Shown here piece by piece: positions 13,565 through 39,353 of a DNA stretch of 64,000 bases (its first letter is position 1; the number at the start of each line of letters is the position of its first letter). The notes beneath the pieces are model-generated. The model did no database searches and had not been told where the DNA came from. It saw only the letters and a program-made list of their open reading frames with translations. The position numbers were made by a program, and so were the translations under genes. Source of the stretch: a plasmid; the NCBI RefSeq assembly GCF_054482525.1, contig NZ_JBTHVG010000004.1. One strand, given 5' to 3'.

Positions 13565-13586
13565 GTTCTCATCTCCCTTTTCTATT

Positions 13587-13602
13587 GCTGTATGCATATA
13601 CA
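13587..13602 (-). promoter_or_regulatory. LexA box (SOS operator) for impCAB
   Basis: ctgtatgcatatacag = CTGT-N8-ACAG, about 25 bp upstream of impC start. Confidence 0.6.
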
Positions 13603-13957
13603 GTATTCTAATAACTGAATCCACACACAGTCAAATGTCATTATTGTGACTAAAAAACGCTCAATTCTCTGAGGGTGTGGCGGTATGCCTGCTGTGGACT
13701 GCTGTGTCCAGCTTATCCACAGCATTTTGCGCACGGTTCTGTGAATAAAATACCTGGTTACCCAGGCCGTGCCGGCACGTTAACCGGGCTGCATCCGATG
13801 CAAGTGTGTCGCTGTCGCCGGCCTCCTCACCCGGTCACGTTTCGTCGTTCCTCCTCCACGCGCTGCGGCTTCGGGGCCGCACCTGCATTCGTATGCGGTC
13901 GCCCGGTTACAGGTGCGGCACGGCCTGATGGAGGCCGCATGTGAGAGGAGAATTCCC

Positions 13958-14884
13958 ATGCCAAACTGGTGCTCAAATCGTATGCATTTTTCTGGTGAAC
14001 CGGCACAGATTGCTGAGATTAAACGACTGGCCAGCGGTGCAGTCACACCGCTTTATCGCCGCGCCACAAATGAAGGTATTCAGCTGTTTCTGGCCGGAAG
14101 TGCCGGACTTCTGCAGACCACTGAAGATGTGCGGTTTGAACCATGCCCCGGACTGACGGCTGCCGGGCGTGGCGTTGTATCGCCGGAGAATATCGCGTTC
14201 ACCCGCTGGCTGACATACCTGCAGGACGGTGTACTGCTGGATGAGCAAAACTGCCTGATGCTGCATAAACTCTGGCTGCAGAGCGGTACTGGACAGTGTC
14301 GCTGGGAAGGATTACCGGACGATGTCAGGGATACCATCACCGCACTTTTCACCGCAAAAAGAGGTGACTGGTGTGGCTTCTGGAGTAACGAGGATGTATC
14401 GGTGTGGTGGAACCGTCTGTGTGACAACGTACTGCCGGAAAAAACCATGCCGTTTGACCTGCTGACGGTTCTGCCCACCCGCCTGGATGTTGAAGTGAAT
14501 GGCTTTAACGGTGGTGTTCTGAACGGTGTTCCTTCTGCATATCACTGGTATACGGAACAGTATGGCGTGAAGTGGCCTGTGGGGTATGAGGTGAATATCA
14601 GTAGTCAGGGAGACAACTTCATTCAGGTGGATTTCGACACGCCGTGGTGTCAGCCGGAAAGCGACGTTATTGCAGAATTAAGCCGCCGTTTCAGCTGCAC
14701 GCTGGAGCACTGGTACGCCGAACAGGGCTGTGATTTCTGTGGCTGGCAGTTGTATGAGCGCGGAGAGCTCGTTGATGTGCTGTGGGGGGAACTGGAATGG
14801 TCTTCCCCGACAGATGACGATGAGCTGCCGGAAGTCACCGGACCTGCGTGGATAGTCGACAATGTGGCGCATTATGGCGGATGA
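13958..14884 (+). CDS. Hypothetical leading-region protein
   Basis: start at internal Met (MPNWCSN..) preceded by SD gagaggaga; Trp/Cys-rich. Confidence 0.5.
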   Translation: MPNWCSNRMHFSGEPAQIAEIKRLASGAVTPLYRRATNEGIQLFLAGSAGLLQTTEDVRFEPCPGLTAAGRGVVSPENIAFTRWLTYLQDGVLLDEQNCLMLHKLWLQSGTGQCRWEGLPDDVRDTITALFTAKRGDWCGFWSNEDVSVWWNRLCDNVLPEKTMPFDLLTVLPTRLDVEVNGFNGGVLNGVPSAYHWYTEQYGVKWPVGYEVNISSQGDNFIQVDFDTPWCQPESDVIAELSRRFSCTLEHWYAEQGCDFCGWQLYERGELVDVLWGELEWSSPTDDDELPEVTGPAWIVDNVAHYGG

Positions 14885-15268
14885 AGTATGACGGAGACGG
14901 GCGGGAAACCGCCCGTTTCTTTTCCGACAAAGGATGTCGCCGTGCTCCTCTTTTTACTGCGCCGGCTGACGCGGCGCGGCATAAACGCTGCCTGTGGTCA
15001 GTGTCCCGCGTCCGGCCGGGCACGGGACGGGCGCTTTTACCGCTCCCGGCTGGCATCGGTGACAGTGTACGCCAGCCCGTCGCCCTTTTCTGATGAACGC
15101 CCTTCAAGCCGCTTTCGCGGCATATTCTCGCCGTCAAAAAGACGACGGCTGCGATATTCCACGGTCGGCCTGACCCGTTACCGGACGCGGTGAACAGCCC
15201 ACAGGCAGCGGGGAACGGGCACCACAGGGGTGCCCTCCCGGTGCCCTCTGTAAGAGAAGGAGTTTCGT

Positions 15269-15952
15269 ATGTCCCGTTTTGTCCTCGGTAACTGCATCGA
15301 TGTTATGGCCCGTATTCCTGATAACGCCATTGATTTCATCCTCACCGACCCTCCATATCTCGTCGGTTTCCGTGACCGTTCCGGGCGCACCATCGCCGGC
15401 GATAAAACCGATGAGTGGCTGCAACCGGCCTGTAATGAAATGTTCCGCGTGCTGAAAAAAGACGCGTTAATGGTGAGCTTCTACGGCTGGAACCGCGTCG
15501 ATCGCTTTATGGCCGCCTGGAAAAATGCGGGATTCAGCGTTGTTGGTCACCTGGTCTTCACCAAAAACTACACATCGAAGGCCGCATATGTGGGCTATCG
15601 CCACGAATGCGCCTACATCCTGGCAAAAGGCCGTCCACGTCTGCCACAAAAACCGCTGCCGGACGTGCTGGGCTGGAAATATTCAGGCAATCATCATCAC
15701 CCGACGGAAAAGCCTGTTACCAGCCTGCAACCGCTGATTGAGAGCTTCACACACCCGAACGCAATTGTGCTGGACCCGTTTGCAGGCAGCGGCTCAACCT
15801 GCGTTGCAGCCCTCCAGTCCGGACGCCGGTATATCGGTATCGAGCTGCTTGAGCAGTATCACCGTGCCGGACAGCAACGACTGGCTGCCGTACAACGGGC
15901 CATGCAGCAGGGGGCCGCGAATGATGACTGGTTTATGCCGGAGGCTGCGTAA
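15269..15952 (+). CDS. Orphan DNA N6-adenine/N4-cytosine methyltransferase
   Basis: 227 aa; catalytic DPPY motif (LTDPPYL) near N-terminus, FAGSGST SAM-binding motif near C-terminus; no adjacent restriction gene. Confidence 0.8.
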   Translation: MSRFVLGNCIDVMARIPDNAIDFILTDPPYLVGFRDRSGRTIAGDKTDEWLQPACNEMFRVLKKDALMVSFYGWNRVDRFMAAWKNAGFSVVGHLVFTKNYTSKAAYVGYRHECAYILAKGRPRLPQKPLPDVLGWKYSGNHHHPTEKPVTSLQPLIESFTHPNAIVLDPFAGSGSTCVAALQSGRRYIGIELLEQYHRAGQQRLAAVQRAMQQGAANDDWFMPEAA

Positions 15953-16174
15953 ATGAACTATGCCGGACACGAAAAACTTCGCGCCGAAGTGGCGGAGGTG
16001 GCCAATGCCATGTGCGACCTGCGTACAACCATGAATGAGATGGAGCGGCGGTACAGCTTTAATGCTGACACCCTGCCGGAACGTCTGGTGCGTCAGACGT
16101 TGTTTCGCGCAAACCGCCTCCTGATGGAGGCATATACCGAAATTCTTGAACTGGATGCGTGCTTCAAAGATTAA
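15953..16174 (+). CDS. Hypothetical small protein
   Basis: 73 aa; start abuts methyltransferase stop. Confidence 0.45.
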   Translation: MNYAGHEKLRAEVAEVANAMCDLRTTMNEMERRYSFNADTLPERLVRQTLFRANRLLMEAYTEILELDACFKD

Positions 16175-16186
16175 GGAGGAGACGAA

Positions 16187-16621
16187 ATGTACGGAACATG
16201 CGAAACGCTCTGCCGTGAGCTGGCAGCAAAGTATCCGGGAAACACGCCGCTGATGCTGCTTATCTGGTCCCCGGAAGAGATTCAGGCACTGGCCGACGGT
16301 ATGGAAATTTCTCTGACCGATCATGAAATCAGGACTGTCCTGGCGCACCTGGAGGACATCCCGGAAGACCAGCGGATGGAGTCCGGTATTTCTTCCGCCG
16401 CTGCGATGGAGATTATCAGCAACGTGAGCGAAAACCGCCTGGTGACCGTCTCTGCTGAACTGCTGGCGTCCCTGATTCAGACCGCTGAACAGGCACTGTG
16501 GAAACGTGAATGGGCCGCCCGTGATAACGGCCTTGCCGTCCCGGAATGTGTTACCCGCCGTCAGGCAGTGATTAATCAGGCCCGCACCCTGCTGAAAAAC
16601 AACACACACGAAAACAACTGA
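16187..16621 (+). CDS. Hypothetical protein
   Basis: 144 aa; SD aggaggagacgaaATG. Confidence 0.5.
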
Positions 16622-16671
16622 TGTTATCGCCGCCTGCCCTGCGGGCGGCGATACAGGGAGAACGCTTAATC

Positions 16672-17442
16672 ATGAACAAAACGCTGAATGCACTGGTTTG
16701 TCGTCACGCCCGTAACCTGCTGCTGGCGCAGGGCTGGCCGGAAGAGACGGATGTTGACCAGCGAAATCCGAACTATCCGGGCTGGATCAGCATTTACGTG
16801 CGGCTGGATGCGCCCCGGCTGGCGACGTTACTTATCAACCGTCACGGCGGCGTACTGCCACCGCTCCTGGCCTCCGCCATTCAGAGACTGACCGGAACCG
16901 GGGCGGAACTGGTACTGTCCGGCAGTCAGTGGCAGTCGCTGCCGGTACTTCCGGCAGACGGAACGCAGGTGTCTTTCCCGTATGCCGGAGAATGGCTGAC
17001 CGAAGACGAAATCAGGGCTGTTCTTGATGCGGTGCACGATGCGGTACGAAGCATCTGTTACCAGGTGGCAGAAGATGCGCGGCGTATCCGTGCGGCGCTG
17101 ACCACCACCGGTCAGACGTTGCTGACCCGCCAGACGCGCCGCTTTCGCCTGGTCGTGAAGGAAAGCGATCACCCCTGCTGGCTCGATGAAGATGACGAAA
17201 ACCTGCCCGTGGTGCTCGATGCCATCGTGAACCGGGGAGCACGTTTTTCGTCGGTGGAAATGTACCTGGTCAGCGATTGTATTGAGCATATCCTGTCCAG
17301 TGGGCTGGCCTGCGATGTGCTGCGTATACCCGATGAACCGCCCCGCCGCTGGTTTGACCGTGGTGTTCTGCGGGAGGTGGTCCGGGAAGCCCGGACCGAA
17401 ATCCGCAGCATGGCGGATGCCCTGGCAAAAATCCGGAAATGA
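16672..17442 (+). CDS. Hypothetical protein
   Basis: start at internal Met (MNKTLNAL..) of track ORF 16621..17442. Confidence 0.5.
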
Positions 17443-17507
17443 TGACACTGGCGGGGTAAATCCCCGCCTTTTTCCTGCCGGTCCCCGGACAGAGCACAAA
17501 GGAAGTC

Positions 17508-17842
17508 GCCGCCGGCTCCGCTTTACCCGGCCATGCGGGGCATGGCCTTGTGGTTTTTCAGTTATGTGGCCTCAGCGTCGTGTGCGGGCTGTGCCGTGCC
17601 TCCATCTTAGCCGGGCTGGCGTTGATGCAAGGGTACGCTTCGCCGCTGCGGTCACCCGGTCCCTCCTTCCCGTCTGCCGTGATTTTCCGGTCGTTCACCC
17701 GCTCAGATTTCGCGGTCTCACCCTGCAACTCCCGTCAGCCGTGTGCGTCAGGCTGCGGCTTCCCTTGCGCCCCTGCATCCCCGCCTGTTCGCCCGGCTTT
17801 TATGGAGGCACGGCACCGCCCGGTGTCGCGGAATATGTGAAC
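17508..17842 (+). promoter_or_regulatory. Leading-region repeat family A copy 1 (ssi/Frpo-like single-strand promoter element)
   Basis: about 335 bp GC-rich element nearly identical to 24457-24788; immediately upstream of klcA-like gene. Confidence 0.5.
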
Positions 17843-17858
17843 AACGGAGGAAAACATC

Positions 17859-18284
17859 ATGCAATATGCGAAACCTGTCACTCTGAATGTTGAAGAGTGC
17901 GACCGTCTCTCCTTTCTGCCGTATCTGTTTGGCAACGATTTTCTGTATGCCGAGGCGTATGTGTACGCGCTGGCGCAAAAAATGATGCCGGAATATCAGG
18001 GAGGCTTCTGGCACTTCATCCGCCTGCCGGACGGTGGCGGTTACATGATGCCGGATGGCGACCGTTTCCACATGGTGAACGGTGCAAACTGGTTTGACCG
18101 TACCGTGAGTGCTGATGCCGCAGGCATCATCCTTACCTCCCTTGTGATTAACCGCCAGTTGTGGCTGTACCACGACAGCGGGGATGCAGGACTGACCCAG
18201 CTTTACCGGATGCGCGATGCGCAGTTGTGGCGTCACATCGAATTTCACCCCGAATGCAACGCGATTTACGCGGCTCTGGACTGA
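17859..18284 (+). CDS. klcA: KlcA/ArdB-family anti-restriction protein
   Basis: 141 aa; recalled resemblance to KlcA/ArdB; sits directly behind repeat A. Confidence 0.6.
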
Positions 18285-18974: not shown

Positions 18975-19700
18975 CCGCGCGAAAACCCCTGGCAGGCTGA
19001 CGCCTGCCGGAAACGCGGGGTGCAGCGCCTGCGGCGCTGCCGGCCCGGCTTTCCGGTCAGAAGGTAGTGTATGGCTGTATGCCAGGAACAGATGTGATAT
19101 TCCGTGACACTGTCACCGTTTATGGTTGTCTTTTATTGCGCCCACTTCGGCTCCCGGCTGCCTGGCGGCATCCGGTCGTCAGGCCCGACTCCGACAGGCA
19201 GCTGCTGGCGCACCCGCCAGTCTCCGCCGAACCCGCTGGCGCGGTTTCGGGCTGCCGCTACGGTCCGATGCGTGAAAACCCGGGCTTGCAGCGACCGTTA
19301 CGGTCGCGCCGCCCCTGTCGCGCCGTGACCTGCGCTCCCTGCACACCTGACGGTGTGTGAGGAAACTGCGCCTGATGGCGCAGCAGTCCTCCCTCCTGCC
19401 GCCACCCCTGCGGCCTGTTTCCCGCTGTGGACTTTCCGGGGGGCAGACGTAACCCCCTCCCGTTCCATCTGTCCAGGGTGAGATGCACCGGCCACAAAAT
19501 TTTTAGCCATGAACCCGGCAAAAAATTTTGCGTCCGCCCCCGGACAGCTGTCCCGTGAGGCGGTAAACGGGCCCCCATCGGAAAGGTCCACTGCGGGGAG
19601 AAACCCCGAAGAAGTGGACGGCAGGAGGAGCTTTCGCTCCTCTGAAGGGGCACATGAACGTCCCGTCGCCGGTATCCGGTTTATCTCACATCTTTCAGTC
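18975..19700 (+). promoter_or_regulatory. Leading-region repeat family B copy 1 (ssi/Frpo-like) upstream of ssb
   Basis: about 700 bp element with long near-identical stretches at 25355-26030 and partial copy at 28546-28895; ends at SD caggaggtt of ssb. Confidence 0.5.
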
Positions 19701-24456: not shown

Positions 24457-24788
24457 CCGCCGGCTCCGCTTTTACCCGGCCATGCGGGGCATGGCCTTGT
24501 GGGTTTTCAGTTATGTGGCCTCAGCGTCGTGTGCGGGCTGTGCCGTGCCTCCATCGTAGCCGGGCTTCTGCGGGCGGGTTGCAAGGTAAGGTGAACCGCT
24601 GCGGTCACCCGGTCCCTCCTTCCCGTCCGCCGTGATTTTCCGGTCGTTCACCCGCTCAGATTTCGCGGTCTCACCCTCCAACTCCCGCCAGCCGTGTGCG
24701 TCAGGCTGCGGCTTCCCTTGCGCCCTTGCAACCCTGCAGGCCCGGCAAAGATGGAGGCACGGCACCGCCCGGTGTCGCAGAACATGTG
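24457..24788 (+). promoter_or_regulatory. Leading-region repeat family A copy 2 (ssi/Frpo-like) upstream of ardA
   Basis: near-identical to 17508-17842. Confidence 0.5.
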
Positions 24789-24806
24789 ACTATGGAGGAT
24801 TCGGGA

Positions 24807-25307
24807 ATGTCTGTTGTTGCACCTGCTGTATACGTTGGAACCTGGCACAAATACAACTGTGGAAGCATCGCCGGACGCTGGTTTGACCTGACCACGTTTG
24901 ATGATGAGCGCGACTTTTTCGCCGCCTGCCGTGCTCTTCACCAGGATGAAGCCGATCCTGAACTGATGTTTCAGGATTATGAGGGATTCCCGGGGAATAT
25001 GGCCTCTGAATGCCATATCAACTGGGCCTGGGTTGAAGGCTTCCGCCAGGCACGGGATGAAGGCTGCGAAGAGGCTTATCGTCTCTGGGTGGAGGATACC
25101 GGTGAGACGGATTTTGACACCTTCCGCGATGCCTGGTGGGGCGAGGCTGACAGTGAGGAGGCTTTTGCGGTTGAGTTCGCCAGTGATACCGGCCTGCTGG
25201 CTGACGTGCCGGAGACGGTGGCGCTCTATTTTGACTATGAGGCGTATGCGCGGGATTTATTCCTGGACTCCTTCACCTTTATTGACGGTCATGTGTTCCG
25301 TCGGTGA
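24807..25307 (+). CDS. ardA: Anti-restriction protein ArdA (DNA mimic)
   Basis: 166 aa from internal Met (MSVVAPAVYVGTWHKYN..); very acidic; matches ArdA as recalled. Confidence 0.9.
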   Translation: MSVVAPAVYVGTWHKYNCGSIAGRWFDLTTFDDERDFFAACRALHQDEADPELMFQDYEGFPGNMASECHINWAWVEGFRQARDEGCEEAYRLWVEDTGETDFDTFRDAWWGEADSEEAFAVEFASDTGLLADVPETVALYFDYEAYARDLFLDSFTFIDGHVFRR

Positions 25308-25354: not shown

Positions 25355-26030
25355 AACCCTGGCAGGCTTACGCCTGCCTGAAATGCAGGAGGGCCGCGCC
25401 TGCGGCGCTGCCCTTCCTGCCCGTCATGGTGTGAGGCATTTTTCTGTTATGTCGTTTCTGTTGTTCTGATTTCCGGAGGCGGGGACACCTTCGGCTCCCG
25501 GCTGCCTGGCGGCATCCGGTCGTCAGGCCCGACTCCGACAGGCAGCTGCTGGCGCACCCGCCAGTCTCCGCCGAACCCGCTGGCGCGGTTTCGGGCTGCC
25601 GCTACGGTCCGATGTCTGAAAAACCAGGCTTGCAGCGACCGTTCCGGTCGCGCCGCCCCTGTCGCGCCGGAAACGGCGCTCCCTGCACACCTGACGGTGT
25701 GTAAGGCCACTGCGCCTGATGGCGCAGTCAACCCTTCCGCCGCCACCCCTGCGGCCTGTTTCCCGCTGTGGACTTTCCGGGGGCTGGAGTAACCACATCC
25801 CGTTTCAGCAGTCCAGGGGAAGATATACCGTCCACAAAATTTTTAGCCATAAACCCGGCAAAAAATTTTGCGTCCGCCCCCGGACAGCTGCCCCGTGACG
25901 TGGTGACGGACGCCCCATCGGAAAGGTCCACTGCGGGGAGAAACCCCGAAGAAGTGGACGGCAGAAGGGGCTTTCGCCCCTCCGGGGAGCAACCGGTCGG
26001 CCCGGCGACCTGATTCAGCAGAAGGAGACG
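25355..26030 (+). promoter_or_regulatory. Leading-region repeat family B copy 2
   Basis: long identity with 18975-19700; ends just upstream of ORF 26036. Confidence 0.5.
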
Positions 26031-28545: not shown

Positions 28546-28895
28546 TCCCTGCACACCTTACGGTGTGTAAGGCCACTGCGCCTGATGGCGCAGCTGTCTC
28601 TTGCCTGTCTGCCGCCGCACTGCGGCCTGTTCTCCGCAGACGGACTTTCCGGGGGTACATACACGACCACATCCCGTTTCAGTCGTCCAGGGGAGAGATG
28701 TACCAGCCACAAAACTTTTTGCCGCTGGCGTCAAAAACTTTTGCGTCTGCCCCCGGACAACTGCCCCGTGACGTGGTGAGCGTCCCCCGTCGGAAAGGTC
28801 CACTGCGGGGAAATACCCTAAGACCCGGACGGCAGAAGGAGCTTCGCTCCTCCGGGAAATGACCTGGCTGACCCGGCAGTCGTGACGATGAGGAG
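28546..28895 (+). promoter_or_regulatory. Leading-region repeat family B, partial copy 3
   Basis: matches the 3' two-thirds of copies at 18975-19700 and 25355-26030. Confidence 0.45.
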
Positions 28896-36757: not shown

Positions 36758-37820
36758 GGCCAGACTCGCTGTCGGTGGTTTTCAGGAATAAATTAAGCGT
36801 GCCAGTTTCCTGCAGAATTCCTGTAGGCAGATGCCAGCCGGTGTCGGACAGCACCCATGGGGTACCGGCAAATCCGAACTTACGGAAGGCGACATTGTTA
36901 ACATCAATCGCAGCTCTGGCTGCTTTCAGGCATGTTTCATCTGCAGGCGTTGTTTCTTCTGATGGCGTCATCATTCCGTTATCTGCGGAATACAGTCGGT
37001 GCCAGCCGGCAGCACGTTTCTGAGCATCTTTTTCACACAGCAGTGGTGCCACACGGTCGGTGGATTCCTCTCCACCAATAACTGAAACCGGGTAGATAAC
37101 GACATTGAAGTCGCTGGCCAGGCGTTTTAAGGCCGGCTCCAGAAGTCTGCAGTTAGGACAGGCAGGATCGAGAAATGCGAACAGGGTTCGTTCATGACCG
37201 GATGACAGGTTGATGGTAAACATGCCCCGATCGGCGTTCCGCTTCAGAACAGTAGCCAGATTATGTCGCGCAGCTGCGGCTTCCGGATTTTTGCTTGTGA
37301 TTGTTTTCTCCGGGACCTGGACGTCTTTTTTCGGGGGAACCGGGAGTTGAATGCCTTCATTTAATGGCACAGTGTGATTCAGGTGAGGGGGTAGCAGTCG
37401 TGGCTCACCTGCTGTCTGTACTGCTTCAGGCGTTGTATCATCCCAGAATACACGATCAACATAGCGGAACAGAGAGAAGCCAATCGTTGCCATTACGAAC
37501 AGCACAACGCTGGCGATTATGCCACGGAACAAAGGTGTTCTGCTGAAGCGGCGTTCCATCAGATATTCAAGGCGCAGGCAGGAATCAATAGCTGTAAGTA
37601 TCTGGTCAGCGTTATGCTCCTGTTTATCAATCAGGACGGTTTCTCTGTTACGGGTGCCCATGGCGTCAAAGGCTATATGAATCAGTTGATTATTTCGTGT
37701 TACCAGCCCTGACAGGGCATCCCGTGGAAGGACAGCAATAATTTCTGTCCTGCCATCCGGCCAGATTGCCTGCACGGAAATATGTTTTGCAATGCGTGTT
37801 GCAAAGTACTCGATTGTCAT
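36750..37820 (-). CDS. trbB: TrbB (thioredoxin-fold disulfide isomerase-like)
   Basis: 356 aa; CxxC motif LDPACPNCR. Confidence 0.8.
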   Translation of the reverse strand: MTIEYFATRIAKHISVQAIWPDGRTEIIAVLPRDALSGLVTRNNQLIHIAFDAMGTRNRETVLIDKQEHNADQILTAIDSCLRLEYLMERRFSRTPLFRGIIASVVLFVMATIGFSLFRYVDRVFWDDTTPEAVQTAGEPRLLPPHLNHTVPLNEGIQLPVPPKKDVQVPEKTITSKNPEAAAARHNLATVLKRNADRGMFTINLSSGHERTLFAFLDPACPNCRLLEPALKRLASDFNVVIYPVSVIGGEESTDRVAPLLCEKDAQKRAAGWHRLYSADNGMMTPSEETTPADETCLKAARAAIDVNNVAFRKFGFAGTPWVLSDTGWHLPTGILQETGTLNLFLKTTDSESGHE

Positions 37821-39140: not shown

Positions 39141-39310
39141 ATAAAAGGATTGTTGCAGATACGAAAGTCGTTAGAATAGCCGCGGACGCTTGAGGCTGTA
39201 TGCCGAAAGCGTTTTGTGGATGGTATACAGCAGAAAGCCCCCTGGAGATTTTTTATCAATCAACCAGGGGCTCTACTGTAATGCCTAGACAACATTATAG
39301 TAGCCTGATA
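39141..39310 (+). repeat. Truncated upstream copy of the pnd (hok/sok-type) leader, direct repeat of 40562-40731
   Basis: about 170 bp roughly 93 percent identical to the leader in front of pndA; contains the mok-frame start atgccgaaagcg but diverges just before the pndA SD. Confidence 0.6.
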
Positions 39311-39353
39311 ATTTAGATATGTGTACATCCTACCGGAAAAGATACTTTTCAGG

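Follow-up and report, generated by a model that had tools for sequence, protein, structure and literature searches.

The window analyzed in our study was the whole stretch of 64,000 nucleotides (contig NZ_JBTHVG010000004.1), which was found to belong to a conjugative plasmid of the IncI-gamma/K type. We examined a perfect DnaA box in the non-coding spacer between the imp operon and the leading-region genes, and found it to be one half of a convergent pair of boxes that recurs across plasmid lineages. The imp operon was present on the minus strand and contained impC (DinI-like), impA (umuD-like), and impB (Y-family polymerase); the coding region of impC was bounded at nucleotide 13564. The leading-region genes were present on the plus strand from nucleotide 13958, beginning with a DUF1281 gene and followed by genes for an M.EcoGIX-like methylase (15269), klcA (17859), ssb (19712), psiB (22599), and ardA (24807); nikA and nikB were found further on, at approximately 30.4 kb. 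No annotated gene was found between impC and the DUF1281 gene in the related RefSeq plasmids. In such plasmids the leading genes are transcribed off the transferred strand (T-strand), towards oriT (PMC11541004, PMC9849209). Therefore, the T-strand is the minus strand of the window, and the higher coordinates enter the recipient first. The DUF1281 gene is the outermost gene of the leading region and the last to enter.

The spacer was found to contain three parts: the imp promoter with its LexA control (13588–13634), the DnaA-box module (13690–13748), and an imperfect hairpin of 165 nucleotides (13763–13927). The GC content was 38% in 13565–13682, 49% in 13683–13749, where the box is located, and 65% in 13750–13957. 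The initial annotation had described an isolated DnaA box in a 330-bp, non-coding, GC-rich spacer ahead of the first leading-region gene. The spacer was indeed non-coding and was followed by such a gene, the DUF1281 gene, although its ATG is at 13958 and not at 13959; the spacer was not uniformly GC-rich, since only 13750–13957 is, and the box lies outside that part.

The perfect R1/R4-type box TTATCCACA (box 1) was found where it had been annotated, at 13713–13721, on the plus strand, which is the coding and non-transferred strand. It was not isolated. An inverted consensus box, TTATTCACA (box 2), was present 18 bp away, and a repeat search found a palindrome from 13713 to 13748 that spans both boxes. 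In addition, a 9-nucleotide complement, TGCTGTGGA, was present at 13690–13698; it matches the 3′ two-thirds of box 1 followed by GCA. Two perfect DnaA boxes were present in the 64 kb, where 0.53 were expected. This count is not significant because 8 of 100 shuffled sequences also reached two or more boxes. The other perfect box (1244–1252; position 37723 in pESBL) was located 167 nucleotides downstream of the replication initiator gene, presumably at the vegetative origin, as we take it from IncI/IncB replicons in general. A replication origin at the box pair was rejected: only two consensus boxes were present, the flanks had 49–65% GC, no notable direct-repeat families were found, and the origin box of the replicon is the one at 1244.

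The evidence against a chance occurrence is comparative. A search for DUF1281 homologues, with one genome per species, gave 18 loci, 17 of which were scanned for boxes over 4–9 kb each. A perfect box was found in 9 of the 17 loci, against approximately 0.07 per locus expected (estimated from the 9-mer frequency), and 8 of the 9 boxes were on the plus (gene) strand; the loci L005, L012, L013, L010, L014, and L018 contained it in the same orientation. All eight plus-strand boxes were followed, 17–28 nucleotides downstream, by an inverted imperfect partner, which was TGTGGACAR in most of them, TGTGAATAA in the IncI copy, TGTAGACAA in L014, and TGTGGAGGA in L013. The convergent pair (a perfect box, 17–18 or 28 nucleotides, and TGTGGACAR) was present in at least six lineages, namely IncI, IncF, Klebsiella IncFII(K), Citrobacter, Pantoea/Erwinia, and Pluralibacter/Serratia. 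It was located in intergenic leading-region DNA, usually just upstream, in the sense of the genes, of a single-stranded DNA promoter hairpin, with a gap of 14 to approximately 80 nucleotides to the hairpin base. Box 1 was always on the coding strand; the boxes were fixed, and the spacers and flanks drifted.

The IncF homology to the window, including that of the F plasmid (52569–52857, between sopB and the methylase gene), was found to begin exactly at 13683. Therefore, the box lies within the first 40 nucleotides of a module that IncI and IncF plasmids share in their leading regions. In F, the pair was present at coordinate 52610, on the distal border of the leading region. Conservation between IncI and IncF alone says little, because the copies are at least 95% identical. 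Box 1 was unchanged in the IncI, F, pESBL, and metagenomic copies, in which the flanks differ. At the box 2 position, IncF and most other lineages contained TTGTCCACA or CTGTCCACA (TGTGGACAR on the plus strand), and F contained TGTGGACA. The TGCTGTGGA arm was specific to the IncI/IncF family; F contained TGTGGATTG and pESBL contained TGTGGG at its place.

Outside this family, the DUF1281 proteins of pair-bearing lineages with unalignable flanks were 35–49% identical to that of the window. A Klebsiella IncFII plasmid with a 48% identical DUF1281 protein had the same synteny (imp-like operon, DUF1281 gene, methylase gene) and contained TTATCCACA 354 nucleotides upstream, followed 17 nucleotides later by TGTGGACAG, in flanks that could not be aligned with the window. 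Among 1929 plasmid records of the Klebsiella family, both boxes and a few flanking bases were invariant, and the spacer and outer flanks varied. In the Pantoea plasmids box 1 alternated between TTATCCACA and TTGTCCACA, and box 2 remained TGTGGACA; the TTGTCCACA form restores a perfect stem with TGTGGACAA. The 28-nucleotide spacer of the Pantoea family contained a conserved middle element, (A/C)TATGCAC. In the window, the spacer element TTTTGCGCA (13725–13733) differed from the relaxed DnaA consensus by one mismatch and had the orientation of box 1; this element and the Pantoea middle element may be weak third boxes. The adjoining hairpin was of class 2 in IncI/IncF and in Pantoea/Erwinia, and of class 3 (M.EcoGIX type) in Klebsiella and Citrobacter. 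Since the pair is found beside two promoter classes, it is not a passenger of one homologous block.

A scan of metagenomes for the pair pattern gave 120 hits, only 7 of which were recognizable leading regions; it serves for spacer statistics and orientation and is not an unbiased census. All seven leading-region hits were co-oriented with the leading genes: in four of them a DUF1281, methylase, or klcA gene began approximately 245–430 nucleotides further downstream, two fell inside a DUF1281 gene or shortly after its end, and one was adjacent to an SSB-like gene.

The neighbouring T-strand hairpin (Table 1) has a main stem in which 13763–13789 pairs with 13901–13927, the arms being 27 nucleotides long and 81% complementary. 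The T-strand of the 336-nucleotide segment 13625–13960, which includes the hairpin, was predicted to fold at −73 kcal/mol (z −4.6), just short of the threshold of −75 kcal/mol per 300 nucleotides used in the pESBL study (PMC12672017). The segment showed weak BLAST similarity to the klcA-upstream element, both in the window and in F. A multiple alignment on the T-strand, with the elements upstream of klcA and ardA in the window and with Frpo'4, Frpo*1, and Frpo*3 (candidates from Samuel et al., Supplementary Table 2), showed conserved blocks along the whole hairpin, and the consensus structure contained 49 pairs, with compensatory changes in 20 of them. Of the six sequences in the alignment, five had TTGCAT, TTGCGA, or TTGTCT as the −35 block; the ardA-upstream element had a gap at this place. 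The −10 hexamer faces an internal loop of the template arm (13908–13914), with 13779–13780 and 13910–13912 unpaired in the pair list. The two predicted hexamers are separated by 15 nucleotides, a short spacing for a sigma-70 promoter. No sigma-70 promoter was found by the promoter scan on the plus strand of the spacer in its duplex form. The hairpin was 98–100% identical between IncI and IncF, whereas the adjacent coding DNA was 86–97% identical.

The klcA and ardA promoters of pESBL were named class 2 by Wen et al. (2025; PMC12672017), who located their start sites by 5′ rapid amplification of cDNA ends (RACE); the F homologue is known as ssp2 or Frpo3 (Fraikin et al. preprint 2026; preprint 10.1101/2025.04.03.647016). 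With these promoters (pESBL klcA/ardA; F ssp2) the hairpin shared the blocks GCCGTG, CCGGGCG, GAAGCCGCAGC, GACCGGGTGA, CTTGCAT, AGCCCGGYTAA, and GGCACGGC. It likewise forms a long imperfect T-strand structure with compensatory changes and −35/−10 hexamers on the non-template arm, upstream of a leading gene that is templated by the T-strand. Unlike in the klcA and ardA promoters, the apical part was approximately 80 nucleotides shorter, as in Frpo*1 and Frpo*3, and the −10 hexamer was TAACGT instead of TAAGAT or TACGAT. From this homology and conserved structure, the assignment of 13763–13927 as a predicted class 2 single-stranded DNA promoter for the DUF1281 gene, its presumed target, is well founded. 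The hairpin is a new candidate member of the class and a seventh candidate single-strand promoter beside the six described for this plasmid type. pESBL contained the same hairpin element and the same gene order as the window. In the F plasmid (L002, 7856–8778) the DUF1281 homologue was a pseudogene, frameshifted near residue 162 and divided over two reading frames; the promoter hairpin and the DnaA-box pair upstream of it were intact and almost identical to the IncI copy. A copy of the Frpo/class 1 type was rejected, as 13625–13960 had no similarity to the F Frpo regions (Frpo1, Frpo2) or to ssiD, and ssiE lies elsewhere in F, near oriT.

Table 1. Features of the imp–DUF1281 spacer and of the gene that follows it; strands are those of the window.
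Feature	Coordinates	Strand	Basis and remarks
LexA box CTGTATGCATATACAG	13588–13603		Perfect; overlaps the start region of the strong minus-strand promoter
imp operon promoter, TTGACT-18-TAGAAT	13634–13605	-	SOS-controlled; divergent from the leading genes
Upstream arm of the most stable small hairpin, TGCTGTGGA	13690–13698	+	Perfect 9-nucleotide complement of 13716–13724
Box 1, TTATCCACA	13713–13721	+	Perfect DnaA box
Box 2, inverted DnaA box TTATTCACA	13740–13748	-	Fits TTWTNCACA (relaxed-consensus scan); 18 bp from box 1
Long imperfect T-strand hairpin, class 2-type (ssp2/"Frpo3"-like), short-loop variant	13763–13927	-	Fold and homology
Predicted −10 hexamer TAACGT	13777–13782	-	Aligned with TAAGAT (klcA) and TACGAT (ardA)
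Predicted −35 hexamer TTGCAT	13798–13803	-	Non-template arm; homology with the 5′ RACE-mapped pESBL promoters (PMC12672017)
Predicted DUF1281 mRNA start on the folded T-strand template	13919–13921	+	Predicted from geometry, 6–8 nucleotides past the −10 on the template arm
Shine-Dalgarno sequence GAGAGGAG of the DUF1281 gene	13943–13950	+	
DUF1281 (+ DUF1281_C) gene	13958–14884	+	Open reading frame; Pfam PF06924 (5.6e-50) and PF18406 (1.9e-15); annotated in pAMSC6 and pESBL

Other hairpins of the promoter types were found along the leading region. The class 2 hairpins at 17560–17861 (upstream of klcA) and 24500–24810 (upstream of ardA) were the references of the alignment. Segments resembling Frpo/class 1 were present at 19271–19551, 25618–25890, and 28649–28759, with 76–93% identity to the F Frpo regions over the matched stretches; they precede ssb, an open reading frame of 144 amino acids (26036), and one of 283 amino acids (28901), respectively. 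A very stable T-strand hairpin (14885–15268; −109.9 kcal/mol, z −7.3) in the interval that separates the DUF1281 gene from the M.EcoGIX-like methylase gene matched the class 3 promoter of pESBL; its core was 98–100% identical to F, and it contained no DnaA-box pair. When 13683–17500 was compared with F, L007, and pESBL, conservation was highest in the non-coding hairpin segments (98–100%), and several coding stretches showed 70–90% identity. This pattern suggests mosaic recombination around strongly constrained cis elements in the distal leading region.

An open reading frame across the spacer (13675–13944, 89 amino acids) was held to be spurious, being unannotated in all related records and overlapping a structured, extremely conserved hairpin. 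A search of 9000–40000 with the Rfam covariance models gave no match in the spacer; the sole match was the sok antitoxin RNA at 39184–39341 (84.6 bits, E 1e-17), which indicates a hok/sok-type locus near the transfer genes. The only terminator called in the region was a minus-strand, terminator-like hairpin at 13767–13752, GCCTGGGTAACCAGGT followed by ATTTTATT, which shares sequence with the base of the main stem and extends into box 2. It lies just past the leftward output that the −35/−10 hexamers would have in duplex form, and may terminate leftward transcripts after conversion to duplex DNA. An intrinsic terminator at the box hairpin itself was rejected, as the scan did not call it and just four T nucleotides stand behind it. 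In Klebsiella IncFII(K) plasmids (L144–L147, approximately 690–720; L005, approximately 2590–2620) a hairpin was present after an A run (a T run on the minus strand), just left of the pair, with compensatory changes between the variants (GAACAGACG/CGTCTGTTC versus CACAGGCG/CGCCTGT). It looks like a minus-strand terminator bounding the leading region.

The initial annotation had suggested that the box could be part of a single-strand initiation or regulatory site and had proposed structure prediction as a check. The prediction placed the box in stems of the T-strand. Folding of 13685–13755, with the upstream pairing to 13690–13698, gave −14.2 kcal/mol (z −3.48), and the conserved pairing of box 1 with box 2 came out weak in the window (−4.0 kcal/mol, z −0.3). 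Lineages with the 28-nucleotide spacer showed inner stems, with −11 to −14 kcal/mol. The complementarity of the arms reached 1–2 nucleotides past the DnaA consensus on both sides. Covariation was seen, for example CCACAG/CTGTGG versus CCACAA/TTGTGG and also GG..CC, CG..CG, and C..G, and all one-sided changes in the 9-bp core retained a G.T or Watson-Crick pair on the T-strand. Strand asymmetry and covariation were rejected as proof of a T-strand hairpin; the trends are in the right direction and weak. The suggestion of a single-strand initiation or regulatory site gains from the conserved pair, the predicted stems, and the neighbouring hairpin that resembles a single-stranded DNA promoter, although the GC-rich part on which it drew is a separate element of promoter type.

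From the conservation, anatomy, and position of the pair and from analogy, we consider, with a probability of roughly 40%, that it forms a DnaA-box hairpin on the T-strand which, like the A site, would recruit DnaA to load DnaB and primase. At the A site, the signal of the ABC primosome, single-stranded DNA coated with SSB needs no more than a hairpin whose stem contains a DnaA box to assemble a DnaA/DnaB/DnaC/DnaG primosome and to support complementary-strand synthesis that depends on these four proteins (PMC6127211, PMC3737561). Both adjacent cis elements of the spacer would then act on the transferred (minus) strand while it is single-stranded in the recipient. The stem of 13763–13927 would rebuild the TTGCAT/TAACGT promoter, and host RNA polymerase would transcribe the DUF1281 gene from approximately 13920 before a complementary strand exists. 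On the 3′ side of the promoter hairpin on the T-strand, box 1 would pair with 13740–13748 (or 13690–13698) in a small hairpin, the stem of which would hold the box in double-stranded form. This hairpin may be bound by host DnaA, which would load DnaB-DnaC and primase, as at the A site/ABC primosome. DnaB would move 5′ to 3′ on the T-strand into the later-entering backbone and lay primers, and the first primers may be extended back into the leading region, towards oriT. A loading site at the distal edge would fit the single-cell conversion data of F. In these data, host machinery primes the strand repeatedly outside the leading region, and conversion there follows the order of entry, with no priming factor named; within the leading region, oriT-distal loci are the first to convert and ssp2 stalls the polymerase (preprint 10.64898/2026.01.09.698686).

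Several observations weigh against such a loading site. The hairpins with loops of 17–18 nucleotides had only −4 to −6 kcal/mol (z approximately −0.3 to −1.4) and were no more stable than shuffled sequences; therefore, DnaA would be needed to hold them against SSB. The covariation was modest, as 16–32 of 500 shuffles equalled the observed values, and the energy advantage of the T-strand (G.T versus A.C) was small. The spacer classes of 17–18 and 28 nucleotides are one helical turn apart, and the metagenome peaks had the same lengths, plus 14; many metagenome hits resembled chromosomal origin-type clusters of DnaA boxes, as judged by eye with the gene context unchecked. The pair was missing from some leading regions and from many of the class 2 and class 3 promoters scanned, and in the Pantoea and Pluralibacter plasmids it was internal to the leading region and not at its edge. 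IncI plasmids reportedly bring their own primase. With regard to the neighbouring promoter, the DUF1281 operon was not among the six induced operons reported for pESBL, though pESBL has the element (PMC12672017), and F was described with only four operons under single-stranded DNA promoters (preprint 10.64898/2026.01.09.698686).

The same spacer lengths fit the geometry of DnaA on duplex DNA, and the pair may instead work after conversion or in the donor, an explanation that we regard as rather unlikely. DnaA on the convergent boxes would be an orientation-dependent transcription block (insulator) or a local regulator, shielding the leading genes from read-through, or the backbone from leftward transcription that the hairpin promoter would start in its duplex form. 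This agrees with the spacing of the metagenome pairs and their likeness to origin clusters, with the weakness of the small hairpins, with a box 1 that is exactly TTATCCACA in most lineages even at the cost of a hairpin mismatch, with the conserved box-like (A/C)TATGCAC of the 28-bp family, and with the terminator-like minus-strand hairpins that adjoin the pair. DnaA-box complexes reportedly block RNA polymerase, a finding attributed to Schaefer and Messer in 1989. Against a duplex site stand the complementarity that continues 1–2 nucleotides beyond the consensus on both sides, with some covariation, and the Pantoea change from A to G, to TTGTCCACA, which weakens the box and perfects the stem. 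Moreover, an insulator needs neither a strict link to single-stranded DNA promoters nor a fixed orientation to the T-strand.

A barrier to DNA polymerase is improbable in our judgement. The module, bound by DnaA as a hairpin or as nascent duplex, and the ssp2-like hairpin would together delay a polymerase that enters the leading region from the distal side, prolonging the single-stranded state and early expression. The proposal is attractive because the neighbouring hairpin is homologous to ssp2, the class 2 promoter of F at which a roadblock to complementary-strand synthesis has been mapped; every F locus in the leading region, also those distal to ssp2, converts later than its distance from oriT predicts (preprint 10.64898/2026.01.09.698686), and in F the hairpin and the pair are the first structure that synthesis from the distal side would meet. 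But there is no evidence of DnaA stalling Pol III at such a site, many class 2 and class 3 promoters lack the pair, and the delay could be explained equally well by a lack of priming sites.

It is still less probable that the inverted repeat binds another protein of the plasmid or host (e.g., a ParB-like leading-region protein) and matches the DnaA box incidentally. The more widely conserved arm is TGTGGACA(A/G), and some lineages contained a symmetrical TTGTCCACA...TGTGGACAA, which is off the E. coli consensus at position 3. Yet in six lineages box 1 is exactly the DnaA box of highest affinity, box 2 of IncI (TTATTCACA) also fits the DnaA consensus, and sequences of the TTGTCCACA type accompany perfect boxes in the metagenome hits that resemble chromosomal origin clusters. 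Finally, a functionless 9-mer in a widely shared and recently spread block, to which the non-significant window count and the near-identity of the IncI and IncF copies would point, is very improbable, and a chance origin is untenable on the comparative evidence, as the pair recurs where flanks cannot be aligned and the DUF1281 proteins have diverged, stands beside two promoter classes, leaves footprints with variable spacers, and shows a strong strand bias (8 of 9).

In the literature searched, with older subscription papers outside reach, we found no DnaA-box pair in leading regions and no role of DnaA in recipient strand synthesis. The DnaA-box module with its fixed polarity points to a definite cis element that can be mutated, and to one host factor, DnaA, for the priming of the incoming strand outside the leading region. 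Thousands of sequenced resistance plasmids of the IncF, IncI, and Klebsiella IncFII(K) types contain the pair. If the pair loads a primosome or forms a barrier, it would help to set how long the single-stranded window for the expression of anti-defence genes lasts, with relevance to plasmid establishment and the spread of resistance. We tentatively suggest, though the generalization is doubtful, that many enterobacterial leading regions may carry a dedicated site for DnaA-dependent loading of helicase and primase: a T-strand hairpin with a DnaA box in its stem, beside a single-stranded DNA promoter and usually at the distal edge, that would launch repeated priming of the rest of the incoming strand in entry order. 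It would also return the first polymerase to the leading region and in this way determine the duration of early single-stranded expression.

Among the known systems, Frpo/ssiD and ssi1–3 (class 1; Masai and Arai 1997; Bates et al. 1999) likewise have a T-strand hairpin that rebuilds a promoter, with early transcription and maybe a primer. The DnaA-box clusters of origins and regulatory sites (oriC, plasmid origins, DARS/datA) resemble the pair in having perfect and TTGTCCACA-type boxes, opposed and at 17- and 28-bp spacings. Unlike these clusters, the window contains two, possibly three, boxes with GC-rich hairpin flanks, in a position tied to the leading region and not to the replicon, and no AT-rich unwinding element, iterons, or initiator gene are found near them as at origins. 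A scan of R6K (NZ_LT827129), which we take to be the source of the A site, found a single perfect box, which lay within a coding sequence, and no box-bearing hairpin. The likeness to the A site (Masai, Nomura and Arai 1990; Masai and Arai 1995, as described in PMC6127211 and PMC3737561) is one of description, not of A-site sequence, and consists of an R1-type TTATCCACA in the stem of a predicted hairpin. Unlike the A site, the window has short and often weak hairpins, and its boxes form a convergent pair with a fixed polarity to the transferred strand, adjoining a single-strand promoter of the RNA polymerase type.

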